From a virus: 64,000 bases of DNA. The notes beneath the pieces are model-generated. The model saw only the letters and a list, made by a program, of their open reading frames with translations. It had not been told where the DNA came from and made no database searches. Shown piece by piece: positions 20,803-63,854 of this stretch (positions are counted from its first letter, which is position 1; each line of letters starts with the position of its first letter). The stretch spans positions 1 to 64,000 of the IMG/VR virus record IMGVR_UViG_3300005827_000047; one strand, 5' to 3'. The position numbers were made by a program, and so were the translations under genes.

Positions 20803-21936
20803 ATGAAGAAAGCTATCGTATTGGAATACTTAGATAAGTATCCAGAATCAGGAAGTATTACTTTATCTAAAAAGATACTTGAAGAAAGAGGAGTAAAGAT
20901 CAACTCAAGAACTATAAGGAGATACAGAGAACTAAGAGATGAAAGATCTTCTAACTTAAACTCAATAATTAAAGATTACAATATCTCCCCTAGAGATATT
21001 ACAGTAAATGAGTGGACAGTAACTTCCTTTAAAAATGGTAAACCTGTTACTGCTACAAATACTCAGATTAAAGTTAAAGGTAACGTAACTAAAGAGTTTA
21101 ACTTTGAAGATCATCTAAAAAAATATCAAGCTCCTAAATCTAAAGCTTTCTATCATCCAACTTCTAATATAGCTGTTATAAATATCTATGATGCACACAT
21201 AGATAAGTTGGCTTTTACTTCTTCTAACTCTATAGAAGATAACTTAAACAGCTTTATAGAAAGCTTTAATAATCTACTTAACTCTACTTTATGGTATAAT
21301 CCTGAGACTATAGTATTTCCTGTGGGATCAGATTTCTTTAACTCTAATGGATTATCTTCTTTAACTAAAAAAGGTACTCCACAAGATAACTCAGTTAAAC
21401 CCCATATAGCTTTTGATCTAGGATTAACTGCTATAAGGAAGTGCATAGATCTTGCTAAGTTATCTACTAATATCTATATCCCTATTATCCAAGGTAATCA
21501 TGATGAAGATACTTGCTTTTACTTAGGTAAATGCTTAGAGTTTATCTATGAGTTTGATGATAGAGTACAAATAGATAGTACTTATACTAAGAGGAAATAC
21601 TTTAGCTATAATGATATTTTAATAGGATTTGCACATGGATCTATAGAGAAGAAAATGATAGATAAGTTACCTTTAGTTATGGCAGAAGAACAGAAAGCTT
21701 TATGGGCATCCTCTTCCCACAGATTTTGGTATCTTGGAGATATCCATCATAAGCAAGAATATAAGTTCTTAAGATCTAAAGATTATGTTGGATGTGAAGT
21801 AAACTTCTTAAGATCTATATCTGAATTAGATCAATGGCATCATGATTCCGGATATATAGGAATACCTAAAAGTGCAGAAGCTTCTATATTCTCTACTAAT
21901 AAAGGAGAAGTAGCAAAGTTTAAAGTTAATCTTTAA
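20803..21936 (+). CDS. calcineurin-like metallophosphoesterase
   Basis: Ordered motif set: 'IYDAHID' (DxH), 'GSDFFN' (GD), 'QGNHDE' (GNHD/E, 21493-21507), 'GFAHGS' and 'LGDIHH'. An N-terminal region of about 60 aa looks like a helix-turn-helix. Confidence 0.65.
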   Translation: MKKAIVLEYLDKYPESGSITLSKKILEERGVKINSRTIRRYRELRDERSSNLNSIIKDYNISPRDITVNEWTVTSFKNGKPVTATNTQIKVKGNVTKEFNFEDHLKKYQAPKSKAFYHPTSNIAVINIYDAHIDKLAFTSSNSIEDNLNSFIESFNNLLNSTLWYNPETIVFPVGSDFFNSNGLSSLTKKGTPQDNSVKPHIAFDLGLTAIRKCIDLAKLSTNIYIPIIQGNHDEDTCFYLGKCLEFIYEFDDRVQIDSTYTKRKYFSYNDILIGFAHGSIEKKMIDKLPLVMAEEQKALWASSSHRFWYLGDIHHKQEYKFLRSKDYVGCEVNFLRSISELDQWHHDSGYIGIPKSAEASIFSTNKGEVAKFKVNL

Positions 21937-35400: not shown

Positions 35401-38400
35401 GAGATAATATCATAATTAATGGTAAACCTCTTACTGTAGTATCTATAGGAGATAAGATAATAGGATTCTCTAAGAAAGAATCTAAAGAGTATTCTTTTCC
35501 TTTAGAATCAGAAGTCTACTTAAATAACTATTTAAATAATAAGGAGCAACTAGAATCCTATATTAACTTCCCTTCTCCTAAAGTTAACTTTACCCAAGAT
35601 AGGCTTATCTTGCCGGATAAGTACTATAAATATGATGAATACTCTGATGAGTTCTTAGCTAACTTAATAAGTAATCTATACCTTGATGTCAGTAATAAGA
35701 AACTAAAGGATAACTCTAAGTTTACTTCCATAACTGGTAAAGAGTATAACTCTTATCAAGATTTTATCTTAGATAATAATTTCTATACAACGGATATAGA
35801 TACTATAAGACCTTTCTATGGAGCAGCTGTATATCTAGAGAAACCTATAATCTCTACTAAAGTAGAATCTCTAGAACCTAAAGAGGTGGAGGTTTCAATA
35901 GAACCAGTAAAAGAAGCTGTAGAAAAAGTAAATAAAGCTGATCTATTTGGAGAAGATTCTCCTTTAAGATTTGCTAAAATAGAATCTTTAGGTAAATCTT
36001 CTCTAGTACTTCCTGGAGATAATAAGAGCATTATAGATTTTGCTATAGCTAACTCTAATGAATATAGTGCTAGAGTAGGATCTTTAATTAAGGAAAGACT
36101 AGATCTTAATAAGGATCTTATAGTAGAGATATCAGATAAAGAGACTCTATTTGGACCTAGTAGGTATACTATGTTCTATTCTTCTGAGGATAATAAGATA
36201 GTTATTCCTAAAGAGACTATAGAGAATGTACCTCAAGATATTCTTGCTGAAAAGATTATCCATGAATTTACCCATAGTTACACTGAATATGCTCTATTAA
36301 AAGCTAAATGGTATCCGGATAAATTGACTAAAGAGGAAAGAATATTTACTGATACTATAGGAGATCTATATAGACAAGCTAGTAAGTTCATAGATAAATC
36401 TAACTATGGTATGAGTAATACTTCTGAGTTCTTAGCTGAGCTGGCTAATCCTTTATTTGCTAAGACTCTTGATTCTATAGTAGTAGATAACAGAAGTATC
36501 TTTAAAAGAATAGTAGATGCTATTCTAAAGCTATTAGGATTCAAAGTAGAACCTAAAGAGACTCTTTATAAGAAGACTTTTGATGCTTTAGCTAATTATC
36601 TGACCTCAGCAAATAAAGTAGATTACTCTATTAGCGGAGAAGTAAAATATGCTAGAATACCTTCAATAAGTAGAACAGAGCAAAAGAGGAGAGTAGATAC
36701 CATAAACTTTATGTTTGTGAAAGGAGCAATTAACTTAGTTAAGAAAGGTCCTTACTCTTTTGAGTATCTTACAAAGAATCAAGTAAAGGAAATCTATGAT
36801 CAGATCAAAGACTACTTATCTGATAATCCTCTAGCTAAATCTGTTATAGATAATTGGGATCTATTTGTAATAGAATCTAAGAAGAGTCTAGTTGACTTTG
36901 GATTCTTATATAAGGAAGATGGAGATACTATAGAGATAGATGATACTACTAAAGAAAGTTGGCAAGTAAAAGCTTTTGAGAATAACCTTAAAGATTCTTT
37001 ATCTAAACAAGTTAAACTTTACTTAAGGTTTATAGAAAGAGTAGATAAAGAAGGTAATTATATAAAAGATGATTTAGGAAGAAATACTTTCTTACCTTAT
37101 GATGAGATTAGTATTTACCTAGCTAAGAACTTAGCTGATCTAGATACTAATGAGGAGAAGTTAAATAAGATACTTGAGTTATCTAAGATTAGACCGGAAC
37201 TTAAAAGAATATATATAGATCTTAGTACGGATCTTACTTCTGATAACTTTAAGAATAATTTCTTTACTAACTTCTCTAAGACTAAAGTAAAGTTTATAAC
37301 TGTACTATCAGAAGGTAAAGATTCTAGTTCTGTTTCTAAAGTAATAAATACAAGTAGGAAAAATCTAGCTAAGGATATTCTTTCTGAATGGAAAGTAACT
37401 TATGAAAGAGAATTAGTTAATGGTAAACCTAATAAGGATAAAGTAGATAAGGCTAAAGAACTTATTAAGGTAAGATATGGAGATGTAGTTACTGATGAGC
37501 AAGCTGATAATCTAAGTAAAGCTTTAGATAGTATAGGTATATTCATTCCTTCTAATAGATTTAGTGGGATGAATAAAGAAGATATATCTAAGTATATTAC
37601 CGGACCTAGTTCTGTAAATACTCTATTTGAATCTCTTAGTAAAGGATATGATATCTTCAATATAGTAGAAGAGCAATCCGTTAAAGGAGAGGGCAGGACT
37701 CTAAGGAAATTAGCTGAACTTGAATCCTTACTTAGACCAGAAGACATCACCCCTTCTGTAGTAAATGGGGAGAATAACAGAATATACGCTTTACAAAATA
37801 ATACAGCTATCTCTAAGGAAATAAGGAGATTAAAGAAAAGTGTAACTGATTACTTATCTGATCCTTTCTATGCTTTAGGTACTAATATTAATTGGGGTAT
37901 AGACAGGTTAATGAAGGATAGGGAATTTAGAGAAAACTTTGATGTAGCTGTATTTGATTCAGAGAGATTAAATCAACCTGGAAGAAAAGGTACTCCTTAT
38001 AATAATATTAACCCTTCTCTATGGAATAAAGTAAAGATTAATGCTGTACTTAACCAAGGAGCTAAATATGGATGGTTTCCTTTTCCTACTCCTGCGGATA
38101 AGGAAAATATATACTTTGCTTATCTCCCTAAGCATAGATTAACTAAAGAAGGAGATTTACTTACCGGTGAATCTTTAGAGATGTACCGTAAAATAGTTTT
38201 ATCTGAAACAGCTAGAATATTTAATGCTCATAGTGAACTATTTAATTGGGAAGAGAAAGATCTTATAGTAGGATATCATTATGAATCCAGCTTATCTCCT
38301 AAAGAAGCTAAAGATAGAGCTAAAGAAGGAGTATTCTCAGGTAAAGCTTTTGAGTATCATATCTTTAAGGAACTAAATGATTTAGGCTTTAATAAGAAAG

Positions 38401-41400
38401 CTATAAATACAACAGAGTTCTTACCTTCAGAAATGGATACTATAGATAGAGTAATAAATAGTTACTTCTCTAAAAGAGTAAGTGAAACTATAGATTACTT
38501 TAAGGAGACTAACATCATAAGTGAAGTTAATGGAGTGTACTCTAATATAGAGATAGATGTTACTTCTCTAAGAGAATATAACTCTATAGAAGATGCAATA
38601 GAGAACTATGTATATAATGTGCAAATGGGATATTGGTTCATAGATTCTATTTTACTTGGAGATCCTGCTTTTACTAAAAGTTATGATGATTATACTAAGA
38701 GAGTAGCTTTATGGCAAACTCCCGGTACAGATATAGGGGGGGGTCAATATACTGTTACTATTGTTAAAGATATACTAACTAAGTCTAAGTTTGCAGAAAG
38801 CTATAAGAAAGCTCTTAGTGAAGTAGGAGTATCTAAAGATAAGATAGATGAAATTATAGGAGTAGAAAAAGATTCAAGAGGTAAACCTTCAGGATATTAT
38901 GATATTAATCAAACTGATGCCCAAGGATTATGTACTTGGGATAGGTATCTTGATATTATGAGAAGACAAGGTAATCTAAGACCTGAGATTACTGATAACC
39001 TTGATAGAATATCTAAAGGAGAGATTACTCCTGAAGAAGCTAATATCTTATTTGCGCCGGTTAAAGGAACTAATATAGGTTACAGAATAGTAAATGGTAA
39101 GAGAGTACCTGTTGCAGTTAAGTATTCACTTACTCCTATACTTCCCTCATTTAGGAAATATCCTAAGTTTGCAAGATTATTGGATAACTTAGAGAAAGAA
39201 GGAATAGATGAGTTGATCTTTGAATCTGGATTTAAACTAGGTACTCAACAATTAGGTCAAGTAAATAATCCTAGAAGTTGGAATAAGATTAAGTTGAATA
39301 ATGATTCTTACAGGATTCCTCAAGTAGTTCCTTATAAGGATACCGGTAAGACTTTACTTCCTACTCAATCTATGAAGAATATCATAGTTAACATAAATCC
39401 TGATGCTTTATATAAAGTAGATGATGAAGTAGTTAGTGGAGAATCTCTAGTAATGGAGTATCAAGAAGTAATAGCTCAAAATATTAAAGATGATTTTAAA
39501 AAGGTAATCAAGAAGTTAGATCCTAATGATAAATCTAGTCTGCTTAAGAATCTTCAAAAGCTATTTCTATCCGAATCTAGGAGAAGGAATAATATGCCGG
39601 ATAACCATATAAAGGCTTTAGATATAGTAGATGATGATTTCAGAGTACCTTTATCTTTTCCTTTATTCTCTTCTTCAAGAGAAAGTATGCTATTCTCTTT
39701 ATTCAAGAAGAAAGTATCTACAAGGAAAGTACCTGGATTCTCAGCTGTGAATGTATCTGATTTTGCTACTACTTATGATGAAGATAATAAACTTAACTTC
39801 TATACTGTTAGTTACACAGACCCAACAGATTCACAAGTATTTACTATAGAAGCAGCTGAGATAGCAGTAAGTCAAGATTACTTTAGGAATATAATTAAAG
39901 CTAAATATCCTGAATATAACTTAGAAGGAGATATAGTGTTAGATAAGATACCTGAAGATCTTAGGTATATGATAGCTAATAGGATACCTAACCAAGCTAA
40001 GAACTCTATGGTTATGTGCAAAATAGTATCCCTACTTCCTAAAGAAGCAGCTAGTCAAATTATGCTTCCTAAAGAAGGTACTAGACAAGGAGGATATGAC
40101 TTTGATATAGATAAGAGCTTTATACTAACTAAGAATTTTAAGATAGTTGAAGGAGAGCTTAAAACTATTAAATACTATTCTAAAGAAGATCAAACTAAAT
40201 TAAGATATGGTCAATACTTAGAAGAACTTGCTAAATCAGATCAACTAAGAGAAATACTTAGAGAGTATAAAGTAGATCTCCAAGAGCAAGAAGATATTTA
40301 CTTTATATTAGGTAATGAACTTGAAGAAAAGATCAATAAAGTATTAAGTATAGATTCTTCATCTATTGAAGAAGAGGAGTACTTTGAGTTACTTACTGAT
40401 TACTTATCTATGGAGGGAATTAGTGAAGAAGAGTTCTCTAAACTTTCTATAATAGAGCAGAACACTAAACAAGCTAGAGAGAATAGGATAGTAGACTTCT
40501 ATATAGCTGTATTAAGCTCTAGCCATAACTTCTATGAAAGTATCTTACCTAATAATATGGATACTCTAGCTTCAGTAAGAAAGAAGATTCTCCAAATCCT
40601 TAATCCTATAGAATCCGGTAGAGATATTATAAATGATTATCAACAAAGTCTCACAAGAGAAAAGAATCAAGCTGGTAAGCAACTAGTAGGAGTGCATTCT
40701 AACTCTGCTGTTGCAAGAGCTTATCTTCAAATATTGAAATATGAATCTGATACTGCTGCTTACTTTGATGGTAAAGAGTTATTCTCTATGGGAGCATTTA
40801 AAGACTACAAGGATAACCTAATAACTGATAATCATCTAGAGCTACAAACTGCTGCTGTAGATAATGCTAAAGATCCTATACTTGGAGATTTAAATGATAA
40901 TATTTATACTGCTGATGTATGGGACTTCTTAGTAGATCTAGGAGTACCTTTAGAAACTATAGCTTATTTTATGACTCAACCTATATTAGTAGAGTTAAGT
41001 AAGAGATGGAATAATGGAGGTAGGACTACTTCTGCTGCTGAAAGTGCATATAAATCTTTGAAAGAAGAATACTTTCTATCCGGAGCAGAAGAGATGAAGG
41101 ATAAAAATCTTAATACAAAAGATCTGATTGAGCAGCTTAAGGCAAGTGATCCTTCTTATCAACTAAATGTACTTAATCAATTTATAACATATAAAGAAGG
41201 AGCAAAATCATATACTAACCTTATTCAATCTTTAAGAGCAGATTCTGTTAGAACCTTACCTTCTGTAGTAGGTAATCAACTATATATGGATAGATACAAT
41301 AAAGTAGTTACTAAGGAGATGAAAGATAAACTTCCTATGGTGGACGCATTTACTAAATATGGAATAGATAAACCTTTAGAGTTAGCCTCTGATCTATTTA

Positions 41401-42491
41401 TATGGCCTTCTAAGCTAGTTACTGATGTTAAAGAGGTATTCTCTTCTATTCAATCTGATTTCTTAACTGAGGACATTATAAATGCTTTAAACTATGATCT
41501 ATTTACTTATCTGTTTACTTTACCTGGAAGTCCTTTAACTTATGCTAATCTAAGTGAGTATCTATATGGAGGAGAGAAACCTCCTTTAGCTGATAGAGTT
41601 AAAAGACTTCAAGATAGAGAAAGAGCTTTATTTAAGGAAGATCCTAATTATGTAATGAATCCTTTTATAATGTCTCTTTCTGAAAAAGAAGTTAAAGTAG
41701 ATTCTGTATTCTATGAAGAGGATATGAAAGTTACTAAAAGTAGGGTAGATCATAAACTAGTTATCTTTGATGATACTTCAGGAAGTAGAACTAAAGATCA
41801 AAAATCTGATATCTCAGATAGTTGGTATGATCTATTCTTAGAAGATAAAACAAGTGATTTAGCTTGGGATCTAGCTTTGTACTCTTTCTTTATAAACGGA
41901 TTCAATAGAGGAGCTTATACCTTTATGGATTATATTCCTATTGAGATGCTTGAGGATATGGGAGTTATAGATTACTATAAGAAGATAGAAGGAGCTATTA
42001 AAGCTGGAAGTACATTAAACATAGATATCCAAGACTTTATAGAGAAGTTCACTAGGAATACTAAGAACCAAGGATTAAACTTTATAAAGAGGATTAAGAA
42101 AGAAGGTAAGATACTTGTAGGAGCAACACTAACTAAAGATGAATTAACTGTAGAGGATTCTTATACTATTCAAACTGATACAGGTAGGTACTTTCCTAGA
42201 ATAATAGGATTACCGGATAAAGGATTAAGACTATTTAAGTTTGTTAAGATGGAAGGAGATAAAGGATTATATAAAGAGATTAATCCTCTAGGTACTAATA
42301 TTATAAGAGAGTATATGCCTAATAAGCAAATAGAATCTATCTTTGCACAGAATAATAAGACTAAGGAAGAAGTGATAAGTGAAGATAACTTTATACCTGA
42401 TACTTTACCTGAAGTAATGTATGAACCTGAATTAGATATAGATCAAGTATCAAATGAAGAAGCAAGAGAAAGGATGAAAGATTGTGAATAA
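32496..42491 (+). CDS. giant polyvalent virion protein with zincin metallopeptidase motif and crAss-like two-barrel (DPBB) RNA polymerase domain
   Basis: 3331 aa. 'IIHEFTHSY' HExxH at 36261-36275. 'MIANRIPNQAKNSMVMCKIV...IMLPKEGTRQGGYDFDIDKS' (NRIPNQ 39978-39995; DFDID 40098-40112) parallels bacterial beta-prime 'NRAPTLH...AYNADFDGDQ'. Confidence 0.75.
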   Translation: MPNDILKEIAKLSGKEAPKVVGTYLSPTTMGDSQYDKGILPTYGDEQGALNKIRARKQTNWDSFANMLVRGVGKALITVPETVGYLADIPEMLGITDDYDNKLSEISRQGKSWLDEVMPEYSRSIADSGFKPLEAEWWFRSGDSIVESLGYLIPGYAVGRGAGAALKLLKASGDIQKYGSTIAAAVGLNYAETMQTAGDHYRESVKQYLNTKDEYGNPVYSEQQAKELASEEASSIVWQGKVNTLFELPAMMSLFKSLGKLPISSRSLKGIDSSKFSIAGELGKQMGSEYLEEVGLGFIQSEQERKRDIRLGKEVKEGNVLSRLVNYAFSDQGLTEGLMGALGGGLFGSLAIKGQKEEYTKQQNLVKELTGKNSEEITKVFKDIGEYNKKEAEAAKLGDSIGFTVAQEQKLNVLAAMNAKAGTFSQFLDNLDLAAEAVGDTTNLEEYKKQAKYVEKIVNRVESYQYPREFKDKLIDNLVNQRVYQNTAGKISKDINQIYQDNILDTSISPNLNLLYNKKKILEKAINKSEGKKLEFAKTKLKELESQIETQLPYTIEDGKEGIKRTLEDISKYSNPVVDSLVQPLISQELKYQYEAQESIDSYNDLIKDPQKSQERIMKEDLKEKRVETEEVIEEAKTKIEESPIEKAKEVVKDIDPILEEAGYTPEEIEDITSMLNESIINKEREEVKSEETKQVEESIVNGVFDNYRDQYLPLEEAEESQVSEESIEDKVYEVTPEPGLASTSREFKESNNKVIYNEIGKPITTGQEEEFDFGYLNSPLFNAGSDVELYVDKDSKYMQEGKGNTPETIHIKIRSNGKIIGNLKNFRPTGNSIEDLDTMEVRSYLFNNPDAVLTTKVREKTRGFILNSKVLEDGKLVPARNSVRSLTDTPILAIPTSESEGMVNYEGKSYGPLTKGKLYALIPSANGSLIPVTLNPRKFTKKESLSIVNFIRSNFYPSIASIDRLSKGDNIIINGKPLTVVSIGDKIIGFSKKESKEYSFPLESEVYLNNYLNNKEQLESYINFPSPKVNFTQDRLILPDKYYKYDEYSDEFLANLISNLYLDVSNKKLKDNSKFTSITGKEYNSYQDFILDNNFYTTDIDTIRPFYGAAVYLEKPIISTKVESLEPKEVEVSIEPVKEAVEKVNKADLFGEDSPLRFAKIESLGKSSLVLPGDNKSIIDFAIANSNEYSARVGSLIKERLDLNKDLIVEISDKETLFGPSRYTMFYSSEDNKIVIPKETIENVPQDILAEKIIHEFTHSYTEYALLKAKWYPDKLTKEERIFTDTIGDLYRQASKFIDKSNYGMSNTSEFLAELANPLFAKTLDSIVVDNRSIFKRIVDAILKLLGFKVEPKETLYKKTFDALANYLTSANKVDYSISGEVKYARIPSISRTEQKRRVDTINFMFVKGAINLVKKGPYSFEYLTKNQVKEIYDQIKDYLSDNPLAKSVIDNWDLFVIESKKSLVDFGFLYKEDGDTIEIDDTTKESWQVKAFENNLKDSLSKQVKLYLRFIERVDKEGNYIKDDLGRNTFLPYDEISIYLAKNLADLDTNEEKLNKILELSKIRPELKRIYIDLSTDLTSDNFKNNFFTNFSKTKVKFITVLSEGKDSSSVSKVINTSRKNLAKDILSEWKVTYERELVNGKPNKDKVDKAKELIKVRYGDVVTDEQADNLSKALDSIGIFIPSNRFSGMNKEDISKYITGPSSVNTLFESLSKGYDIFNIVEEQSVKGEGRTLRKLAELESLLRPEDITPSVVNGENNRIYALQNNTAISKEIRRLKKSVTDYLSDPFYALGTNINWGIDRLMKDREFRENFDVAVFDSERLNQPGRKGTPYNNINPSLWNKVKINAVLNQGAKYGWFPFPTPADKENIYFAYLPKHRLTKEGDLLTGESLEMYRKIVLSETARIFNAHSELFNWEEKDLIVGYHYESSLSPKEAKDRAKEGVFSGKAFEYHIFKELNDLGFNKKAINTTEFLPSEMDTIDRVINSYFSKRVSETIDYFKETNIISEVNGVYSNIEIDVTSLREYNSIEDAIENYVYNVQMGYWFIDSILLGDPAFTKSYDDYTKRVALWQTPGTDIGGGQYTVTIVKDILTKSKFAESYKKALSEVGVSKDKIDEIIGVEKDSRGKPSGYYDINQTDAQGLCTWDRYLDIMRRQGNLRPEITDNLDRISKGEITPEEANILFAPVKGTNIGYRIVNGKRVPVAVKYSLTPILPSFRKYPKFARLLDNLEKEGIDELIFESGFKLGTQQLGQVNNPRSWNKIKLNNDSYRIPQVVPYKDTGKTLLPTQSMKNIIVNINPDALYKVDDEVVSGESLVMEYQEVIAQNIKDDFKKVIKKLDPNDKSSLLKNLQKLFLSESRRRNNMPDNHIKALDIVDDDFRVPLSFPLFSSSRESMLFSLFKKKVSTRKVPGFSAVNVSDFATTYDEDNKLNFYTVSYTDPTDSQVFTIEAAEIAVSQDYFRNIIKAKYPEYNLEGDIVLDKIPEDLRYMIANRIPNQAKNSMVMCKIVSLLPKEAASQIMLPKEGTRQGGYDFDIDKSFILTKNFKIVEGELKTIKYYSKEDQTKLRYGQYLEELAKSDQLREILREYKVDLQEQEDIYFILGNELEEKINKVLSIDSSSIEEEEYFELLTDYLSMEGISEEEFSKLSIIEQNTKQARENRIVDFYIAVLSSSHNFYESILPNNMDTLASVRKKILQILNPIESGRDIINDYQQSLTREKNQAGKQLVGVHSNSAVARAYLQILKYESDTAAYFDGKELFSMGAFKDYKDNLITDNHLELQTAAVDNAKDPILGDLNDNIYTADVWDFLVDLGVPLETIAYFMTQPILVELSKRWNNGGRTTSAAESAYKSLKEEYFLSGAEEMKDKNLNTKDLIEQLKASDPSYQLNVLNQFITYKEGAKSYTNLIQSLRADSVRTLPSVVGNQLYMDRYNKVVTKEMKDKLPMVDAFTKYGIDKPLELASDLFIWPSKLVTDVKEVFSSIQSDFLTEDIINALNYDLFTYLFTLPGSPLTYANLSEYLYGGEKPPLADRVKRLQDRERALFKEDPNYVMNPFIMSLSEKEVKVDSVFYEEDMKVTKSRVDHKLVIFDDTSGSRTKDQKSDISDSWYDLFLEDKTSDLAWDLALYSFFINGFNRGAYTFMDYIPIEMLEDMGVIDYYKKIEGAIKAGSTLNIDIQDFIEKFTRNTKNQGLNFIKRIKKEGKILVGATLTKDELTVEDSYTIQTDTGRYFPRIIGLPDKGLRLFKFVKMEGDKGLYKEINPLGTNIIREYMPNKQIESIFAQNNKTKEEVISEDNFIPDTLPEVMYEPELDIDQVSNEEARERMKDCE

Positions 42492-45400
42492 GTGTCCAAT
42501 AAAAAATGATTCTTGGATTAAGTTAGTAAATGAAGTAGGTGAAGTTAATGCCTATAAGTACTTTATACTTAATAATGAAGAGACTCCTTCAGAAGAGCAA
42601 GTAAATAAGATTATAGAGAATAGGAAACCTACTCCCTCTAAACTACTTAAATTGTATAATGCGGATATTAATGGCTTCATACCTAAGAATGTTATAGTAG
42701 AGAAGCTTAGAATAGATGCTAAGAAATTAGGATTAGAAGTTAGAGAAGCTTCAAATGGTAAATACTATTTAACTAAAGAAGGTAAGAAGATTAACTTTTA
42801 TTCCTTATCCGGAGAAGGAGATAGAAATAGTGAACTTGAGAATAAGTTAAAAGGAATACTCTCTAATATAGGAATAAAAGTAGAATCCTATAGTTCTCTA
42901 GTAAATAAATTAGGAGTAGATGCTTCAGGTGCAGCAGATATCTTAAATAAGATAATCTATATTTCAGAAGATAAAGCTAAGTTAGATACTTTACCAGAAG
43001 AAGTAGCTCACTTCTTTATAGCTGGATTAGGTACGGATAATCCTTTAGTAAGTAGATTAATGAACTCTATTAAAGATCATCCTATCTATAAAGAAGTAGA
43101 GAAAGAGTACTCTTCTTTAAACTTATCTGAAGATATCCTTAAGGAAGAAGCTGTAGGTAAGTTGCTAGGTAAGTATATAGTTCAAGAGTTCAATAACTCA
43201 GAAGGAGTAACTATTTGGAATAAGTTTAAAGGTACTTTAGATCTTATTATAGATAAAGTACTTAAGCTATTCAAGAAGATAACCAATAAAGATCTCTATT
43301 CACAAGTAGAGGAGATATACGGAGATTTTGCTAAAGATATACTTAAGGGTAACATCAATCCTTCTAAAGAAGATAAGGTATTCTATCAATTAAGTAAAGA
43401 GTTAAAAGAGTATTCTAAAATAGTTGAGGATAAACTTAAAGCTATTAAATCTAGAGTAATTAAGTATTCCGTATATCAAAATGAGTATAAGTCTTCTGAG
43501 AAGATACAGGAATACTTAGATACTACTATTCAAAGAGCTAAAGAGATAGAAGAGTTAAATAAGTTAAATCACGAAGAAGCTTACTCAAAGTTATTACTCT
43601 TAGTTAATGATGGGCTAAAGGATATAAAAGAGAGGATATCATCTGCTCCTTTAAGTCAAATGGGATTATCTAGATCTATAGAATTTGTAACTTCTTATAA
43701 GGATATAAATCTAGTAGAATCAGATAGTGAAGTGATAAAAAAAATAGCTGGCTCTATAGAGGGAGAAAGAGTAAGGATAGAAGCTGAGTTACTAAAGTTG
43801 AGTCAAGAATCTTTATCTGAAATAGTGCAAGAAGAATCTTTATCTGATAAAGAAGATTTGATTACTCCTATAAAAGATCTATCCTTTGATCAAAGATGGT
43901 TAGGAGCTATGGCTAATGCTGATGATACTTTATTAGCTGTTGTAGATAAACTATATAAGAGAGAAGTAGTAGATAAGACTAGTGATATTATAAGAACCTT
44001 TAAGTATAATCATGATAAGCTATATGAGAAGGTTAATAAAGAAGATCTAAGTTTACTTTTTGAGAAAGTAGATAGTAGACCTAATTTCTATATGCTTCAA
44101 ACTAATGATCCTATTAGGTTTACTTCTAAGTATAAGTATGAATACTACTTATTGATGGATAAAGCTAAGATGGAAGCTGATGCTTATCCTAAAGGATCTG
44201 AAGGAAGAAAAGATGTATGGAAAAAGTTCTTTAGTGAAAATCATACTAGAGGATATAGAGATGAATATGGTAATTGGATAAATGGAGAACCCTTAGCTAA
44301 GTTTGAGAATGAGGATTATAAAAAGATTCAAAGTAATAAGGATCTTAAAGAGTACTATGATTTCATAATGAGATGGAAAGAGAACTCTGATAATCTTATG
44401 GGATTATCTTCTTATCCTTTAAGAAAGTCTAGTATTCCTTATTTCTTTTCTGATTTATCTGAGAAGATAGCTAAGAATAAATTATGGAACAGCTTAAAAG
44501 GATTAGGTAAAGAGATCTCTTCTTCTATAGAGTATACTAAAGGAGATAGAGCTTTAGTAGATGAATCCGATAAAGAAGTTAAAGTAATCAGAAAGCAAGG
44601 AGTAGCTAGAATAGATGAATCTCAAAGAACTTATAATATTCCTGATATTATATCAGCTTATGTATATTCAGCTAATCTTTATAGAGCTAAAAGAGAAGTT
44701 CAGGGAATCATAGAATTAGCTAAGACTTATGCTGAAGCAAGAAAGATTCCTAAAACTAATTGGAGAGGTAAGGTACTTGATCAAAATGGAGATCTAGTAA
44801 ATATAGAAGGAGCTAGTTCTGCTTCTTACCAAAGATTCAAAGATTGGTATAATATGATCTATATAGGAGATACTGATAAAGAGAAAGGCTTTAAGATCTT
44901 CGGTAAAGAAGTTTCAGATAAAAAGATAGCTAAAGCATTTGGTAAGTATTCTTCTATAACAGCTTTAGGATTAAACTTATTCTCTGCTGTATCCAACATA
45001 GTATATGGAGGATCTATGCAAGTAATAGAAGCTATGGGAGGAGAGTTCTATTCTGCTAAAGATTATTTATGGGCTACTAAGAAATATGGAGAAAGTGCAT
45101 TATCTGATAAGATGAAGTTAATGCTTGATTACTATAGAGTATTACAAGATACTTCTTACTTCGGAGATAAGAAGAGTATGATAAGCAAAATACTATTTGG
45201 AGCTAACTCAGCTGGAGAGCACATGATGCAGTCCAGAATATTCTTAGCTATGAGTCATAACTATAAAGTTAAAGATGCTAAAGGAGTAGAATATAACTTA
45301 TGGGATGCTTATGAAGTAGTAGAAGGAAGACTTAAACTTAAAGAAGGTATAGAGTTATCTCAAAGAGAGATATCTGATTTTAGAAGAAAAGTAGAGGGAG

Positions 45401-46080
45401 TTAACCAAAGACTTCATGGTAGATATACAGATTTAGATAATGCAGCTTTAAGTCAAACAGCTTTAGGATATCTAGCTTTACAATATAGGAAATGGATTCA
45501 TCCGGGATATGAAGCTAGATTTAGAAATCAATACTTTGATGAAAGGTTAGGTCAATATATTAAAGGTAGATACTTATCTTATCTAGACTTCTTTAAAAGC
45601 ATTAAAGAGCTTAAATCTATTGCAGCAGGTTGGAATAATCTATCTGATCATGATAAAGCTAATATGAAGAGGAATATAGCTGAATTAGTATACTTAACAG
45701 GAACCATCCTACTATTATCTGTATTAAGATCTTTATCAGAAGATGATGATGAACTTGATGATTCTAAAGCTTTTAACTTCTTTATGTATCAAGTAGATAG
45801 GTTTAACTCTGAATTGAAATTCTATAACATAGGTATAGTAACTGGAGATCTTACTAAACTAATAAGAACTCCAGCTGCATCTATCTCTGTTATAGAAAAT
45901 GTAGGTAGGTTATTAAATGATACTCTTCAATATCCTTTTAGAGATGAAGAAGAGAATATAGTTAAGGGAGAAGAGTATACTAAGATTCAAAGAGACTTTG
46001 AAAGACTTATTCCTCTTATTAAAGAAACAAGGAGATGGTCAAACTTAGAAGATCAAGCTACTTACTTTAAGACTTACTAG
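42484..46080 (+). CDS. large virion/ejection-associated protein (unknown function)
   Basis: 1198 aa, 8-nt overlap with the RNAP gene. Mostly helical, with hydrophobic segments 'SSITALGLNLFSAVSNIVYGG' and 'ELVYLTGTILLLSVL'. Last gene of the + strand arm. Confidence 0.4.
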   Translation: MNKCPIKNDSWIKLVNEVGEVNAYKYFILNNEETPSEEQVNKIIENRKPTPSKLLKLYNADINGFIPKNVIVEKLRIDAKKLGLEVREASNGKYYLTKEGKKINFYSLSGEGDRNSELENKLKGILSNIGIKVESYSSLVNKLGVDASGAADILNKIIYISEDKAKLDTLPEEVAHFFIAGLGTDNPLVSRLMNSIKDHPIYKEVEKEYSSLNLSEDILKEEAVGKLLGKYIVQEFNNSEGVTIWNKFKGTLDLIIDKVLKLFKKITNKDLYSQVEEIYGDFAKDILKGNINPSKEDKVFYQLSKELKEYSKIVEDKLKAIKSRVIKYSVYQNEYKSSEKIQEYLDTTIQRAKEIEELNKLNHEEAYSKLLLLVNDGLKDIKERISSAPLSQMGLSRSIEFVTSYKDINLVESDSEVIKKIAGSIEGERVRIEAELLKLSQESLSEIVQEESLSDKEDLITPIKDLSFDQRWLGAMANADDTLLAVVDKLYKREVVDKTSDIIRTFKYNHDKLYEKVNKEDLSLLFEKVDSRPNFYMLQTNDPIRFTSKYKYEYYLLMDKAKMEADAYPKGSEGRKDVWKKFFSENHTRGYRDEYGNWINGEPLAKFENEDYKKIQSNKDLKEYYDFIMRWKENSDNLMGLSSYPLRKSSIPYFFSDLSEKIAKNKLWNSLKGLGKEISSSIEYTKGDRALVDESDKEVKVIRKQGVARIDESQRTYNIPDIISAYVYSANLYRAKREVQGIIELAKTYAEARKIPKTNWRGKVLDQNGDLVNIEGASSASYQRFKDWYNMIYIGDTDKEKGFKIFGKEVSDKKIAKAFGKYSSITALGLNLFSAVSNIVYGGSMQVIEAMGGEFYSAKDYLWATKKYGESALSDKMKLMLDYYRVLQDTSYFGDKKSMISKILFGANSAGEHMMQSRIFLAMSHNYKVKDAKGVEYNLWDAYEVVEGRLKLKEGIELSQREISDFRRKVEGVNQRLHGRYTDLDNAALSQTALGYLALQYRKWIHPGYEARFRNQYFDERLGQYIKGRYLSYLDFFKSIKELKSIAAGWNNLSDHDKANMKRNIAELVYLTGTILLLSVLRSLSEDDDELDDSKAFNFFMYQVDRFNSELKFYNIGIVTGDLTKLIRTPAASISVIENVGRLLNDTLQYPFRDEEENIVKGEEYTKIQRDFERLIPLIKETRRWSNLEDQATYFKTY

Positions 46081-58055: not shown

Positions 58056-58271
58056 TTAACTTTTTATTTCTCTCCACCACTCAATCTTAGTACCCGGATG
58101 TAATTTACTTTTACTAAATACAATAGGTCTAGATTCATCATGAGCTATTAATGTTAGTGTATATTCTTTAGTAATTATATTAATAGGAATAAAGAGATTA
58201 GAAGAAAATAATAAATCTGTAATAGTCCAGGGGATCTTAGCAACTTCTCTATCCTTTAACTCTTTTATCAT
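58056..58271 (-). CDS. NLF[IL]P-motif small protein family, isolated copy
   Basis: 71 aa. 'MIKELKDREVA...LLFSSNLFIPINIITKEY'. Embedded between the helicase and ATPase genes. Confidence 0.55.
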   Translation of the reverse strand: MIKELKDREVAKIPWTITDLLFSSNLFIPINIITKEYTLTLIAHDESRPIVFSKSKLHPGTKIEWWREIKS

Positions 58272-58272
58272 A

Positions 58273-59247
58273 TTACAATTCTTTTACTAGTCCTACTTGT
58301 GCATTAAATAGCATAGGTACATATAAATCAGCTTCTCCATTTCTATTCAACATCACCTTTAGTGATCTATATTTATCCTTATAAGGAGTTATATCCATAC
58401 CATTATGCTTTTTAATTTTATGTTTCTGAGGCATATATAGTCCTAATAGTAAATCACAATCTCTAACTACTGTTTTTGCATCTCCCATTCCATCTATAGA
58501 AGGTTCAAATCTATCTTCAATTAAAGCTCCACTATTAGTATATTGAGCTTGCTCTTTTATCATAGATTGCTGTTGTACTACAGCCCAACTACATCCATAT
58601 ACATTTCTGGTAAATACACAATATTCAGAAGTCTTTTCCATAGCTTCTCTTTTAGTTAATCCCTTTTCTGTATTAACTAAGGCAAGATGATCAATAATGC
58701 CTATAAATATAGAATTAGGATCATTAGGAGTATATGACCCATTAACCATAGTACCATTAGCTAGCATATAGTTTTTAGCTCCCATATAGATACCAGTAGG
58801 ATTTTCAGATCCTTCAAATATGACTAAATAATCCTCAAGCTTTTCAAAGTATTCTCTTTGTTCCAATATTAAGTTATACTTATCTGCTGATAGTCTATTT
58901 TTAGAAAAGGAGAGTACTTCATTTCTATCTAAAATAATACCCGTATTCAAGTAAACTCTCCTTATTATCCCCTTAACTATCATTTCTATAAGAGATATCT
59001 CCATAGACCAATAGAATATTTTGAGGGGAATATTATTAGCTATAGCAAACTCATAAGCATTATAAACATAAAGATGATTAAGTAATAAAGTCTTACCTAC
59101 TTTGGTTCCGGAAGTTATGATACAGAAAGTAGACTTAGTTATACCGGGAACATAATTCTCTAATTTGGGAAACCCAAAAGGAATACAATTATGTTCTCTA
59201 TTTCTATTCTCGTCAATAGCTTTTATAGCTCTTTCAAAGTACTTCAT
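58273..59247 (-). CDS. DnaB-like replicative helicase (RecA-fold C-terminal domain type)
   Basis: 324 aa. 'IPFGFPKLENYVPGITKSTFCIITSGTKVGKTLLL' (Walker A), 'IFIGIIDHLALV' (Walker B) and 'WAVVQQQS'. Confidence 0.6.
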   Translation of the reverse strand: MKYFERAIKAIDENRNREHNCIPFGFPKLENYVPGITKSTFCIITSGTKVGKTLLLNHLYVYNAYEFAIANNIPLKIFYWSMEISLIEMIVKGIIRRVYLNTGIILDRNEVLSFSKNRLSADKYNLILEQREYFEKLEDYLVIFEGSENPTGIYMGAKNYMLANGTMVNGSYTPNDPNSIFIGIIDHLALVNTEKGLTKREAMEKTSEYCVFTRNVYGCSWAVVQQQSMIKEQAQYTNSGALIEDRFEPSIDGMGDAKTVVRDCDLLLGLYMPQKHKIKKHNGMDITPYKDKYRSLKVMLNRNGEADLYVPMLFNAQVGLVKEL

Positions 59248-60960: not shown

Positions 60961-61145
60961 TGATCTAGTGGTTTATGCAATTTTTTAATTCTGATTAGAC
61001 TATGCTTTCTTGAAGTTTCTAAGTTATTTGCGGGAACATCAAATAGATTAGTAATTTTAAAATAATATGTTTCAATATTAATTCTATTTACATCAAAACT
61101 ACCCAATATACCTCTATCACACATCTGAATTAATTGTGTATCCAT
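60957..61145 (-). CDS. small hypothetical protein (weak NLF-motif family member)
   Basis: 62 aa. 'YFKITNLFDVPANNLE'. Similarity is marginal. Confidence 0.3.
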   Translation of the reverse strand: MDTQLIQMCDRGILGSFDVNRINIETYYFKITNLFDVPANNLETSRKHSLIRIKKLHKPLDQ

Positions 61146-61498
61146 ATAGTTACATTAGGATTATAGTTATAATTTCCAAAATACTTTAAGTCGGGAAAAA
61201 AGGCTGTAAATAGATTTTTAGTTGTAATACGTAAACCTATAATTTTTGCGCTGGCAGGCTTTCTGTAAATATCAGAATCAGATATTTCTCTATTTCTTAC
61301 ATCTATAGAAAATAAATATCCTCCATAAACATTAAAGTAAACTCTACTAATACTAGAGTATAAATTTACCTTTACTAAAGTAATCTTTTCTATTTTAGGA
61401 GGTATAAATAACCCCGATAATATAAAAGCATCACCTCCAATTTTAACACTTAGATCTTTTAAAATAAGATCTTTAGCTGATTTTATTAACCTTTCCAT
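61130..61498 (-). CDS. NLF[IL]P-motif family, array B copy (122 aa, motif present twice)
   Basis: 'AFILSGLFIPPKIEKITL' plus a second 'TTKNLFTAFFPDL'. Possibly a fused duplicate. Confidence 0.5.
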   Translation of the reverse strand: MERLIKSAKDLILKDLSVKIGGDAFILSGLFIPPKIEKITLVKVNLYSSISRVYFNVYGGYLFSIDVRNREISDSDIYRKPASAKIIGLRITTKNLFTAFFPDLKYFGNYNYNPNVTIWIHN

Positions 61499-61659
61499 AT
61501 ACTCATAAGGGGTCTTAGGATATTATGTGCTACAAATTTCATTTCAGGAGAAGCTATTATGAATAGATTTTGAGTAATAGTATAATCATAAGGATAGAAT
61601 CTTCCAAAATAAGAATTGAATATCCCTCTTTCTGCTGCTTCTTCTAAATATTTTTCCAT
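61486..61659 (-). CDS. NLF[IL]P-motif small protein family, array B copy (not in ORF track)
   Basis: Hand-translated 57-aa ORF MEKYLEEAAERGIFNSYFGRFYPYDYTITQNLFIIASPEMKFVAHNILRPLMSIWKG. Overlaps both neighbours. Confidence 0.4.
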   Translation of the reverse strand: MEKYLEEAAERGIFNSYFGRFYPYDYTITQNLFIIASPEMKFVAHNILRPLMSIWKG

Positions 61660-61832
61660 ATTAATAAAGGATGATCAGAGAACTTAAAATCATAAGAACA
61701 AGTACTCAAATTAGGTAAAGAAGTAATGAATAAGTTAAATACTTTAAAATACCCACATTTAGAGTATGTTGCCCTCCAACTATAACATATATCTCTTCTA
61801 TCGGCTTCTTCTAGAACTTCTATTGTTATCAT
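61644..61832 (-). CDS. NLF[IL]P-motif small protein family, array B copy
   Basis: 62 aa. 'YFKVFNLFITSLPNLS'. Confidence 0.45.
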   Translation of the reverse strand: MITIEVLEEADRRDICYSWRATYSKCGYFKVFNLFITSLPNLSTCSYDFKFSDHPLLIWKNI

Positions 61833-61986
61833 CTATGTATATTAAATTTAATCCGTCAAAAGTCCTAAAATAGATCTTTATTCCTTCTATCTTAGGTAAA
61901 AAAAGATTGGTATTAAAAGCAGTATTTAAATATCTACTTCCAACCATATCTCTATTTAAAAGCTCTCTCATAGTTACCTTATTCAT
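61798..61986 (-). CDS. NLF[IL]P-motif small protein family, array B copy
   Basis: 62 aa. 'MRELLNRDMV...AFNTNLFLPKIEGIKI'. Confidence 0.5.
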   Translation of the reverse strand: MNKVTMRELLNRDMVGSRYLNTAFNTNLFLPKIEGIKIYFRTFDGLNLIYIDDNNRSSRRSR

Positions 61987-62182
61987 TTCTTATGGGGGTT
62001 ATAGCAACAAGAATTCTTTCAGAACTTGATAAAACAATGGAACTTATAAATCTAATTCCTTTTCCTTCTATAGGGGGAATAAATAGATTATTTGCTAAGG
62101 AATACTGATCCCAAGCAAAACTATTAAGCAGATCCCTATATAATAGATTATATATTAATTCATTTACTTCTATTACTCTCAT
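61979..62182 (-). CDS. NLF[IL]P-motif small protein family, array B copy
   Basis: 67 aa. 'YSLANNLFIPPIEGKGI'. The motif context closely matches the copy at 61798..61986. Confidence 0.5.
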   Translation of the reverse strand: MRVIEVNELIYNLLYRDLLNSFAWDQYSLANNLFIPPIEGKGIRFISSIVLSSSERILVAITPIRNE

Positions 62183-62426
62183 TATTATAGTTCTTAGTTA
62201 GTATTAACCTAGGTGAAAAAACAAAATCTTTGTGAAATCCAAATTTAACTACTAAGCTGCTAGGAAAGAAGCCACTATTAATATCAATTATAAATTGTAC
62301 TGCATCTAATTCTGTAGTATAAAATACATAAGGATCATAATTAAATCTCCATTCAATACGACTAAATATATCCCTATTATAAAATAGGTCTAGATAGTCT
62401 TTATCTTTATTAAATTCTATATCCAT
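62160..62426 (-). CDS. small hypothetical protein (degenerate family member?)
   Basis: 88 aa. 'INSGFFPSSLVVKFG'. Its ATG overlaps the stop of helicase exon 2 by 10 nt. Confidence 0.4.
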   Translation of the reverse strand: MDIEFNKDKDYLDLFYNRDIFSRIEWRFNYDPYVFYTTELDAVQFIIDINSGFFPSSLVVKFGFHKDFVFSPRLILTKNYNNESNRSK

Positions 62427-62543
62427 TGCACATTTGGTAAATCTTTCTGAGCCTTTATTAAAGTTGATCTTTCTTTAGTTCCTTTTAGATAAAGGAATAT
62501 TATTAGAGCTTTCTTATTTTCTTTATATCTTAATATTCTACCT
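62417..62543 (-). CDS. SF2 (DEAD/DEAH-type) helicase, exon 2
   Basis: After splicing this exon encodes (I)GRILRYKENKKALIIFLYLKGTKERSTLIKAQKDLPNVQWI*. It completes helicase motif VI, QRIGRILR, begun in exon 1. TAG stop at 62417-62419. Confidence 0.8.
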
Positions 62544-62844
62544 CTAAATTAATATGTGCTTAGGCTATACTTGCACATCAAGATTTTCATCTTGGTTCGG
62601 ACTATATCTTAGTCTAAATTCTTGAAGAGCTTGATAAGCCTCTTCTTCTGTTAGAAATCCAATAAATGAATTAAAAGAATTTTTAGACTGCAACCTTTTC
62701 CAAGAAAGTAACCAACTTTCTCGTACTCCCCTAAGGGATAGTCTCTACACCTTCTCTATTTTAATAGAGCTTGGCTCGGTATTAGCATATATTTCTACTT
62801 AGCTTTCACCGAATTAAATTGCTTTATAGAGGACAGGTATGTTT
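62544..62844 (-). ncRNA. group I self-splicing intron (301 nt, no internal ORF)
   Basis: P1: the exon end AGAGGAU pairs with the intron guide GUCCUCU (62828-62834), with the U-G wobble at the splice site. R-like 'GUAGAGACUAUC' (AGAGACUA at 62739-62746). Exact S consensus 'AAGAUAUAGUCC' (62599-62610). GACUA/UAGUC forms P7. CAAGAU-GAAA-AUCUUG tetraloop hairpin. The terminal nucleotide is G. Confidence 0.85.
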
Positions 62845-63854
62845 ATCCTCTGTATAGTTGATCTCATAATAGAAGTAGTAGATACTACTATTCCCATATC
62901 TACATCAGGAGCATCAAAACCCCTTTCAAAGATCTTTATAGAATTAAGTACTCTATACTTATTATTCTTAAAGTCTTCTATTAGAGCATTTCTATCCTTA
63001 TCTTTCATATCACTTGTAATGCAGATAGAATCAGGTACTTCACTAGTTAACTTTTCAGCAAAGGATTTAGTTAGACTAAAAGTAATTATCTTCTTATCGG
63101 AATATCTATTTATTAAATCTTTAGCTAGTTTCAACTTCTCTTCAGATTCATAAATAAGCTCATTTCTCTTTTGCATAGCTAATCTACATCTTTTAGCTAT
63201 ACCTATCACTTCTCCCGGAGATAGATCTAATCTGGAATTTGCTATAAACTGTTTAGCTCCATTATAATTCATGCAGCTAAACATAATATCCAAATCATCA
63301 TAAAAGAAAGCTAAATCCTTTCTAAATGAGTTATCTATTTCTTCATAAGAGCTAGGCTTATCTACTTGCATATTATAGATTTCAAAGTCACATATCCACT
63401 TATTCTCTAAAGCTTCTTTAAATCCAATAGAGCTTATTATAGGAGCATATTTTTGAATAAGTATATGCTTACCATCTTTTCTCTCTAAAGAAGCTGTAAC
63501 ACAAAATATGTACCTGTAAGAACATATAGTAAATATCTTACTAAAAGTAGGAGCTGCCATTAAATCACATTCATCTACTAATAGTAAATCACATTTTCTT
63601 TCTTGCTTAATGTAAGTATTTATAATAAATACCTTTACTCTGCTATCTACTAAGTTCTTTACTTGATCTTTAAGTAATTTAGAATGGACTATAAAATGGA
63701 TTTCAGATTCCGGATATTTAGCTAATCTTAGATTACAAATCTTATTAAGCATAGTACTCTTTCCAAAACCAGTTACAGCTTCTAAAGAGCCTCTTCCTCC
63801 AAGTTTTACCCAAGTATCTATTATCTCATTTTGCCTTTCAGCTTTACTTATCAT
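62845..63854 (-). CDS. SF2 (DEAD/DEAH-type) helicase, exon 1
   Basis: Walker A 'AVTGFGKSTM', motif II 'LLLVDECDL', motif III 'VTASLER', and 'ERGFDAPDVDMGIVVSTTS'. Ends at 'STIQRI', inside motif VI. The track ORF (62814..63854) reads 9 further codons into the intron. Confidence 0.85.

Follow-up and report, generated by a model that had tools for sequence, protein, structure and literature searches.

We analysed a 64,000-nucleotide stretch of viral DNA (positions 1 to 64,000 of the IMG/VR record IMGVR_UViG_3300005827_000047; hereafter the window) in which a gene on the minus strand, encoding an XPB/Rad25-like superfamily 2 (SF2) helicase, is interrupted within its motif VI by a 301-nucleotide insert. 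The insert is very probably an endonuclease-free group I intron of the IA2 type, and the phage, whose replication module it occupies, is a distant member of the crAss-like group. An intron at this place had been proposed in an earlier reading made from the DNA letters without database searches (the sequence-only reading), and all of the observations listed there were found where it had put them, on the minus strand. The features of the locus are collected in Table 1, where i denotes positions within the intron and equals 62845 minus the window position.

A helicase gene split within motif VI

The helicase open reading frame (ORF) given in the ORF list extends from 63854 to 62814 on the minus strand and encodes 346 amino acids, of which the last nine, NIPVLYKAI, follow ...STIQRI. 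As the sequence-only reading had noted, the frame loses its sense at this point and ends nine codons on; the stop is a TAA. Exactly 301 nucleotides past the T at 62845 begins the sequence AGGTAGAATATTAAGA..., which together with the leftover exon 1 bases AT reads I-G-R-I-L-R-Y-K-E-N-K-K... through to W-I. Translation of the joined exons gives a protein of 378 amino acids that contains QRIGRILR, in agreement with the earlier prediction that the frame would resume with GRILRYKENKK and yield a product of this length. The insertion splits the motif VI isoleucine codon after its second base (Q-R-I/G-R-I-L-R, where here and below a slash marks a junction).

Pfam comparison of the spliced protein revealed Helicase_C at residues 239-343 (profile positions 1-109 of 110), along with ResIII and ERCC3_RAD25_C. 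Four uninterrupted homologues with 100% coverage were returned from a collection of 5.8 billion proteins: P0002 (75% identity, 378 amino acids), P0003 (65%, 377), P0004 (64%, 378) and P0005 (51%, 384). The spliced protein is colinear with each of these, without gaps across motif VI and through to the C terminus (...IPN..W[IV]). Excision of the insert, in the comparison with intron-less homologues that the sequence-only reading had suggested, therefore restores a normally organized gene. Within the homologue alignment no variation is seen at Q335 of motif VI, and almost none at G338, R339 and R342. The closest solved structures are archaeal XPB/Rad25 ATPases (XPBII; 6p4f and 5tnu, E ~4e-22), with which the junction aligns as rstiQRiGRilRyKenKkal to rqflQRlGRilRkK-dKeal. 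With its helicase core, whose C-terminal RecA-like domain ends in motif VI (QxxGRxxR), the product is identified as an XPB/Rad25-like SF2 helicase, and the placement of the intron within motif VI of such a gene is borne out by the gapless match to the four homologues and by the alignment to the XPB structures across ...QRlGRilRkK....

The insert is 3n + 1 nucleotides long and holds five stops in the exon 1 frame, and the exon 2 frame is open for just two codons upstream of the junction and lacks a start codon of its own. For these reasons neither read-through, nor recoding, nor independent translation can express exon 2. Stop-codon recoding was considered as a substitute for splicing and was rejected because of the 3n + 1 length and because both TAA and TAG occur in frame. 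Relative to the intron-less locus L001, nonsynonymous (pN) and synonymous (pS) divergence is 0.141 and 0.766 in exon 2 and 0.175 and 0.496 in exon 1, values which indicate that purifying selection keeps exon 2 as coding sequence in the spliced frame. Since exon 2 is under such selection and has no start codon, we infer that its expression occurs via splicing.

We consider it exceedingly improbable that the two frames are joined by some route other than RNA splicing, such as translational bypass or frameshifting, or that the split reflects an assembly error or two polypeptides that assemble with one another. A split helicase could in principle work as two chains, and the direct evidence for joining is bioinformatic only, but 301 nucleotides with five in-frame stops far exceed any known bypassing and the second chain would have no start codon. 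Moreover, the insert reaches 76 bits with the group I intron model and has guides complementary to both exon ends, and an assembly error would not yield related inserts at the identical codon in independent contigs, as are described below.

Table 1. Positions of the helicase exons and of the predicted intron RNA elements in the window.
Feature	Position	Strand	Details and basis
Exon 1, XPB/Rad25-like SF2 helicase	63854..62845	minus	Codons 1-336 and first two bases of codon 337, ...STIQR-I; ORF list, translation, Pfam, alignment to P0002-P0005
P1 5' strand, exon AGAGGAU	62851..62845	minus	Final U is the exon partner in the U.G wobble of the 5' splice site
Predicted group I intron, 301 nucleotides, IA2-type architecture, ORF-less	62844..62544	minus	Rfam RF00028, verified helix map, excision restores frame
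Internal guide	62839..62828	minus	UACCU 62839..62835 (i6-10, P10 5' strand), then GUCCUCU 62834..62828 (i11-17, P1 3' strand)
P3 5' strand GCAAUUU (i23-29)	62822..62816	minus	Pairs with AGGUUGC 62696..62690 (i149-155)
First in-frame stop TAA	62816..62814	minus	Intron nucleotides 29-31, at 3' end of P3 5' strand; a ribosome from exon 1 would terminate
P4-P5-P6 domain	62813..62749	minus	P4 UUCGGUG with UACCGAG; P5 and P5a with GAAA loop; P6 GCC with GGU; P6a CUCUAU with AUAGAG
R element GUAGAGACUAUC	62748..62737	minus	Contains P7 5' strand GACUA 62743..62739 (i102-106)
P7.1, linker and P7.2	62738..62701	minus	P7.1 UCCC-UUAG-GGGA i107-118; G-U-A 62726..62724 i119-121; P7.2 CGAGAAAGU-UGGUU-ACUUUCUUG i122-144, nine pairs
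P8 GUCUAAA with UUUAGAC	62688..62612	minus	63-nucleotide internal extension forming more hairpins; position of the GIY-YIG/NUMOD1 gene in sister introns
S element AAGAUAUAGUCC	62610..62599	minus	Contains P7 3' strand UAGUC 62604..62600 (i241-245)
P9 CAAGAU-GAAA-AUCUUG	62594..62579	minus	Helix map; kept in L130 and L133
P9.1 AUGUGC...GCACAU	62578..62554	minus	Six pairs, 13-nucleotide loop; kept in L130 and L133
Terminal G (omega G), i301	62544	minus	3' splice site
P10 3' strand, exon 2 AGGUA	62543..62539	minus	Five pairs with UACCU
Exon 2	62543..62417	minus	Last base of codon 337, then GRILRYKENKK...PNVQWI, stop TAG 62419..62417; coding part ends at 62420

Architecture of the intron RNA

The insert contains the helices expected of a group I intron, and every mapped helix (P1, P10, P3, P4, P5/P5a, P6/P6a, P7, P7.1, P7.2, P8, P9 and P9.1) is made of standard pairs only. 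P1 joins AGAGGAU of the exon to GUCCUCU of the guide in seven pairs, the last of them U.G, with a duplex energy of -8.6 kcal/mol. P7, formed by GACUA and UAGUC, makes a pseudoknot with P3, and GAAA tetraloops are present on both P5a and P9. The sequence-only reading had described P1 with its U.G pairing where the 5' splice site lies, R-like and S elements joined through P7, hairpins including a stem with a GAAA tetraloop, and a G as the final nucleotide of the intron, and each proved to be present. When the precursor is folded without constraints, the helices P1, P3, P4, P5, P6a, P7.1, P7.2, P8, P9 and P9.1 are recovered (-79.3 kcal/mol; z = -3.47 for the sense strand), and the antisense strand folds more weakly (z = -2.35). 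P7 is absent from this fold because of its pseudoknot with P3.

P7.1 and P7.2 stand between P7 and the 3' strand of P3 and are linked by G-U-A, which is the mark of subgroup IA2 in the wording of an earlier study (PMC3428280). There, the self-splicing Pf-WMP3 intron was assigned to IA2 from the G-U-A linkage of P7.1 and P7.2 and from its absent P2 (PMC3428280).

When positions 62300-63000 were searched alone, the Rfam model Intron_gpI (RF00028) aligned over its full length (1-253) with a score of 76.1 bits, compared with a gathering score of 50, and an E-value of 1.6e-19. The Rfam alignment spans 62578..62899 and, with P1 and P2 set inside exon 1, takes the true P1 for inserted sequence. Because its P1 and P2 are misplaced in exon 1, its coordinates are not the intron boundaries, and the boundaries of the sequence-only reading are the correct ones. 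The covariance-model score, the complete set of helices and the covariation found in relatives (below) likewise uphold its assignment of the element to the group I introns.

Stops are found throughout all three frames of the intron. The sole ORF, of 42 amino acids (62693..62565), has no family match above threshold; its best match, Arm-DNA-bind_4 (E 0.012), reaches 15.6 bits against a cut-off of 22.3, and it is out of frame with the endonuclease genes of the related introns described below, so we rejected it as a gene.

Related introns at the same codon

Viral contigs were searched with a sequence comprising the exon end, the intron start and the guide (GAGGATAAACNNNCCTGTCCTC), and six contigs were returned. 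L130 (IMGVR_UViG_3300044846_001842), L133 (…3300049828_000118), L135 (…3300047476_001020) and the partial L132 carry an intron at the identical motif VI codon and in the same phase. Exon 1 of these sister genes ends in ...VQRI, ...SVQRI or ...SAQRI, and exon 2 resumes with GRIIRYRPG... or GRLLRLNPD... in L130, L133 and L135; L132 stops within the intron, with its exon 2 outside the sequence. The sister introns have the same flanks as the window intron (CAGAGGAT/...G/AGGTAG), and the first 17 intron nucleotides are identical in L130, L132, L133 and L135. Identity to the window intron is 70-78% over nucleotides 1 to 106-151, and the 3' halves are unalignable at the sequence level.

The sister introns seen whole are 1084-1111 nucleotides long. 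Those of L130 and L133 contain ORFs of 269 and 298 amino acids, respectively, which begin within P8 and extend across the S element and the 3' strand of P7. The L130 product exceeds the Pfam cut-offs for GIY-YIG and NUMOD1, and the L133 product, which is 43% identical to it, has a sub-threshold NUMOD1 match as its sole match. No trace of the sister endonuclease was detected in the window (best tblastn E 0.26); together with the stop-filled frames and the lack of a family match, this agrees with the earlier description of the window intron as ORF-less.

A helix-by-helix comparison revealed that the window intron and those of L130 and L133 keep P3, P4, P5, P5a, P6a, P7.1, P7.2, P8, P9 and P9.1 through different sequences; in P8, for example, CAUUUGUAUA is fully paired with UAUGCAAAUG. 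The same three introns are identical in P1, P10, P6, P7, the G-U-A linker and the GAAA loops. Their host helicases are ~27% identical to that of the window, in the C-terminal domain alone, and are thus more distant from it than are 80 intron-less relatives (29-65%). The window intron therefore appears to be an endonuclease-free member of a mobile intron family that targets motif VI.

Several other candidates were set aside. A free-standing GIY-YIG gene of the intron-less locus L001 and of L137, the closest relative, is only distantly related to the sister endonucleases (28% identity, E 4e-5) and was rejected as their source, and a match in an Oscillospiraceae metagenome-assembled genome (L136) is a chance one without intron features. 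Contigs L131 (IMGVR_UViG_3300042923_000470) and L134 (3300042922_000255) were rejected as sisters because they carry a different intron, with an HNH-type ORF, that is not in a helicase. This intron lies upstream of a terminase-like ORF, and its 5' end (AAACAAACCTGTCCTCC, after exon ...GGAGGAT) is nearly identical, so that the guide region appears to be common to introns of different genes.

Wider relatives of the core

The guide and exon part of the sister family was found in no deposited phage. The P3-P7 core, on the other hand, resembles 171 deposited phage records at ~75-85% identity, with at most 30% of the intron covered. Ten such loci were retrieved; seven match the Rfam group I model, five of these above the gathering score. 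An alignment of the P4-P6 domain from 18 related phage introns contains compensatory changes at five of the six P4 pairs and at the base of P5, and the window intron keeps every pair. The P7-P7.1 motif occurs in 27 viral contigs, which share the core alone and have it in other genes, e.g. terminase-like ones. No match was found in the metagenome or genome collections for a 23-mer taken from P7-P7.1-P7.2, nor in the viral collection for a 31-mer (S element to P9) or an 18-mer (guide).

Group I introns without annotation were seen in Bacillus phage Tavor_SA (L082; KY963369, ~9192-9428), Chosvirus KM23C739 (L091; KT997847), Flavobacterium phage immuto (L085) and Alteromonas phage AD45-P1 (L083), with scores of 85, 78, 77 and 56 bits, respectively, all above the Rfam threshold. 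The intron-split tape-measure gene of Tavor_SA and capsid gene of KM23C739 are each present as two coding sequences sharing a product name. Positions 21781-21862 of the uncultured crAss-like phage cr116_1 (MT774389.1 / NC_055882.1), a stretch free of annotated features, are 84% identical to the P4-P6 core of a sister intron and probably mark a further group I intron that has escaped annotation in a crAss-like phage.

Predicted splicing and competing explanations

If the element acts through the established chemistry of group I introns, the pre-mRNA would fold into the P3-P9 core and the guide GUCCUCU would pair with the exon end AGAGGAU to form P1. An external guanosine bound in P7 would then attack after the wobble-paired U. 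UACCU would pair with AGGUA of exon 2 (P10), the terminal G would enter the G site, and the exons would be ligated at ...CAGAGGAU/AGGUAGA... (in DNA, ...ATACAGAGGAT/AGGTAGAATATTA...) to give the mRNA for the 378-amino-acid helicase. Ribosomes entering an unspliced intron would be expected to stop at the UAA formed by intron nucleotides 29-31. The window copy may have lost a P8 endonuclease gene or may never have had one, and would now move only with an endonuclease supplied in trans.

Several points weigh against the identification of the insert as an IA2-type, self-splicing intron. Catalysis and self-splicing are deduced from sequence and structure alone. P2 is not present, and of the P9.0-P9.2 set described for some IA2 (IStron) introns, P9 and P9.1 are seen, with P9.0 and P9.2 not identified in the helix map. 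The subgroup is assigned by architecture, not by a classifier, and the exact 5' boundary that we favor is drawn from the P1/P10 analysis and the protein alignment, not from the Rfam model. No whole-intron relative was found for the window intron's own 3' half, and for P7.2, P8 and P9.1 support comes from two independent sister sequences only. Furthermore, RF00028 was not reported for the whole 64-kb window, at either the gathering or a permissive E-value threshold, nor for a stretch of 21.5 kb (42500-64000). The covariance-model check that the sequence-only reading had proposed thus succeeded with the ~0.7-kb locus and gave no match in a routine scan of the whole window. Because the same model yields 76 bits on ~0.7 kb, we attribute the misses to the speed filters of Infernal, which tighten with the size of the search space.

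The intron could instead be a dead relic that splices poorly or not at all, in a gene that is being lost and makes only the 346-amino-acid helicase truncated in motif VI. Such a protein is probably inactive, given that motif VI is near-invariant across homologues. The absence of an endonuclease gene is expected late in a homing cycle with degenerating elements, four of the five clade members lack the intron, and the eight codons upstream of the insertion are unusually divergent. However, we judge this explanation very unlikely. The core and peripheral helices are all intact and made of standard pairs, the R and S elements fit the consensus, and both guides, that of P1 and that of P10, remain perfectly complementary to the exons. 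Selection on exon 2 is as strong as that on exon 1 (pN 0.14, pS 0.77), and this exon retains its full length and its stop, while the key residues of motif VI (Q335, G338, R339 and R342) remain invariant or nearly so.

About as unlikely, or slightly more so, is that the intron splices in vivo but not autonomously, requiring a host or phage protein such as an RNA chaperone or a maturase-like factor, or that conditional splicing regulates the amount of helicase. This would be a refinement of the explanation that we favor and not another identity for the element. Many group I introns depend on or are aided by proteins in vivo (PMC3984707), and the efficiency of phage intron splicing can vary with conditions, as stated in one report (PMC10914365). 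The lack of P2, the long, AU-rich extension of P8 and the G+C content of 34% could also be read in this way. On the other hand, no sign of a cofactor or of a sensor domain is present in the sequence, and a compact IA2-type phage intron without P2 self-splices in vitro (PMC3428280).

Consequences for annotation

The ORF track had missed the intron, as the sequence-only reading pointed out, and the same is true of a public protein collection. There, entry P0001, from a Joint Genome Institute (JGI) contig of 85,121 nucleotides, is exactly the product of the truncated 346-amino-acid ORF of the window. The intron-caused mis-call of the helicase has therefore spread into databases; the correct product has 378 amino acids and an intact motif VI.

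Rfam scans of 21-64 kb and searches for endonuclease domains are both blind to this 76-bit intron, so introns may be more numerous in crAss-like and other uncultured phages than the reported loads suggest. Genome-scale scans may routinely overlook phage introns that lack an ORF. A filter-free scan of the window with a profile of the P3-P7 core (nhmmer) returned this intron and a weak match at 46581-46546 (E 0.0055), and nothing else. The weak match was rejected as a second intron, as Rfam found none in the 46.0-49.7 kb region. This negative applies to introns with a similar core, and members of other subgroups may lie elsewhere in the window.

Phage context

The sequence-only reading placed the intron in a replication gene of a crAss-like phage, and the surrounding genes support this. 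A tblastn search with the major capsid protein returned 138 records, and the 12 matches listed are crAss-like, Bacteroides or Flavobacterium phages at ~29-32% identity, a level low enough to suggest a distant relative of the crAss-like phages. The terminase, portal and head/capsid proteins match phage families of the PHROGs collection. Genes of DnaA_C-like, DnaB_C-like, AAA_24 and DnaG-type primase proteins neighbor the helicase gene, which supports its assignment to a replication module. No tRNA genes were found in the window, nor any homing endonuclease domains in the replication module.

Small overlapping ORFs of 57-122 amino acids lie directly downstream of the helicase gene (61130-62426, minus strand), with another at 58056-58271. 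They resemble paralogues, have the pattern M..E(L)..RD...NLFIP and have no counterpart in Pfam; in L001 and L137, too, small ORFs of a similar kind lie beside the helicase gene. Elsewhere, two very large plus-strand ORFs (32496-42491, 3331 amino acids; 42484-46080, 1198 amino acids), preceded by an ORF of 1339 amino acids that matches virion structural families, end the plus-strand block and adjoin a strand switch at ~46-49 kb.

Distribution and mobility

Of the five helicases known from this clade, one has the intron, and in the other four, P0002-P0005, the site is empty. The motif VI site is also free of introns in 80 viral and 11 metagenome relatives. The distribution is thus patchy, the site being empty in close relatives and occupied in helicases that are ~27% identical. 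An intron-encoded homing endonuclease is found in the family and not in the window copy, and no candidate for a trans-acting endonuclease was found in the 64-kb window. The suggestion of the sequence-only reading that the intron derives from homing is now more strongly supported, because GIY-YIG/NUMOD1 genes are carried by the sister introns that occupy this codon in distant helicases.

Residues 329-336 of the helicase, IMRSTIQR (DNA 62870-62847, minus strand), correspond to VDRRAKQV in the closest relatives and form the most divergent window-specific stretch of the protein (first among 371 segments compared along it). The DNA of the insertion site reads CAGAGGAT/AGGTAGA in our window, and CAGGTAAT/AGGGAGG and CAAGTAAT/AGGTCGT in intron-less relatives; the site of the intron-less L001 reads …AAGCAGGTAAT/AGGGAGGCTA…. 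The eight divergent codons could be the co-conversion tract of endonuclease-initiated repair or could equally reflect later adaptation of the exon to the guide. The divergent tract measures 24-26 nucleotides; for comparison, I-TevI cuts 23-25 nucleotides upstream. Co-conversion of flanking exons is documented for homing (PMC3943268; PMC2790892). The exon flanks of the sister hosts share only CAGAGGAT with the window and were rejected as donors of this tract.

The closest relative, L137 (Logan SRR33465376_1111), has a DnaB-like gene at 13434-15463, matching window positions 58273-59247 (minus strand), that is split in Walker A (...SGTKV/GKT...). What splits it is a group I intron, to which Rfam gives 58.4 bits over 14388-14580 and which contains a GIY-YIG/NUMOD1 gene of 280 amino acids (13642-14484). 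The XPB-like helicase of L137 is uninterrupted, and the DnaB-like gene of the window is intact: a suspected split of it was rejected, since 58273-59247 encodes a complete DnaB_C-type protein of 324 amino acids that is colinear with the L137 homologue after removal of the intron. That different replication helicases of sister phages have been invaded at catalytic motifs points to a rapid turnover of introns in the replication module.

A broader proposal, which we offer tentatively and with a little less than even confidence, is that the window intron is an endonuclease-free member of an undescribed IA2-type family that moves horizontally between very distant phage SF2 helicase genes by way of CAGAGGAT/AGGTAG. 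The present copy would have been acquired through endonuclease-driven repair that overwrote approximately eight upstream codons. A corollary would be that ORF-less introns are systematically under-counted in phage metagenomes, because searches based on endonucleases are blind to them and filtered covariance-model scans drop them.

Comparison with known systems

The introns in the td, nrdB and nrdD genes of phage T4 belong to subgroup IA2. The window intron resembles these and the DNA polymerase introns of phages Pf-WMP3, PhiI and W31 in its P3-P9 core, its consensus R and S elements and its G-U-A-joined P7.1 and P7.2. It also shares a P10 of 4-5 base pairs, the 5' splice site's U.G pair and the terminal G (PMC3428280; PMC3984707), as well as residence in a DNA-metabolism gene at the codons of critical residues and an early in-frame stop; P2 is absent as in Pf-WMP3. 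The window intron differs in its host, an XPB/Rad25-like SF2 helicase, in its motif VI site and in the lack of an endonuclease ORF. The targeting of critical codons, in-frame stops, endonuclease-free introns and homing in trans have all been described (PMC3984707; PMC2790892), and no description of an intron at motif VI of an SF2 helicase was found in the literature searched, an incomplete collection. Compared with the window intron, the sister introns have the same order of helices and the P9.1 hairpin, but carry a gene in P8 where the window intron has its 63-nucleotide extension.

Group I introns of crAss-like phages have been reported in the genes for the major capsid protein (MCP), PolB, primase, ATP_43b and RNA polymerase (RNAP) of the Delta and Zeta groups, according to Yutin et al. 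2021 (PMC7886860). They are of the self-splicing type, reside in core genes and complicate annotation, all of which applies to the window intron as well. They were, however, detected through the endonuclease domains that they encode, a route by which an ORF-less intron cannot be found, and the passages of that study consulted here do not name the helicase as an affected gene. The nrdB intron of T4 and mobE provide another parallel, in that an intron lacking a functional endonuclease is retained in a phage gene for replication or nucleotide metabolism and draws its mobility from an endonuclease encoded elsewhere (PMC2790892); the window differs in offering no candidate for such an enzyme within its 64 kb.

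With group I introns already known in phages, including crAss-like ones, the finding is a new site and host and not a new kind of element, and it leaves the understanding of group I intron function unchanged. With it, motif VI of SF2 helicases joins the catalytic motifs that serve mobile phage introns as insertion sites. The copies with endonuclease genes, the endonuclease-free copy and the empty sites together form a natural set for the study of homing between hosts that share little beyond the motif.

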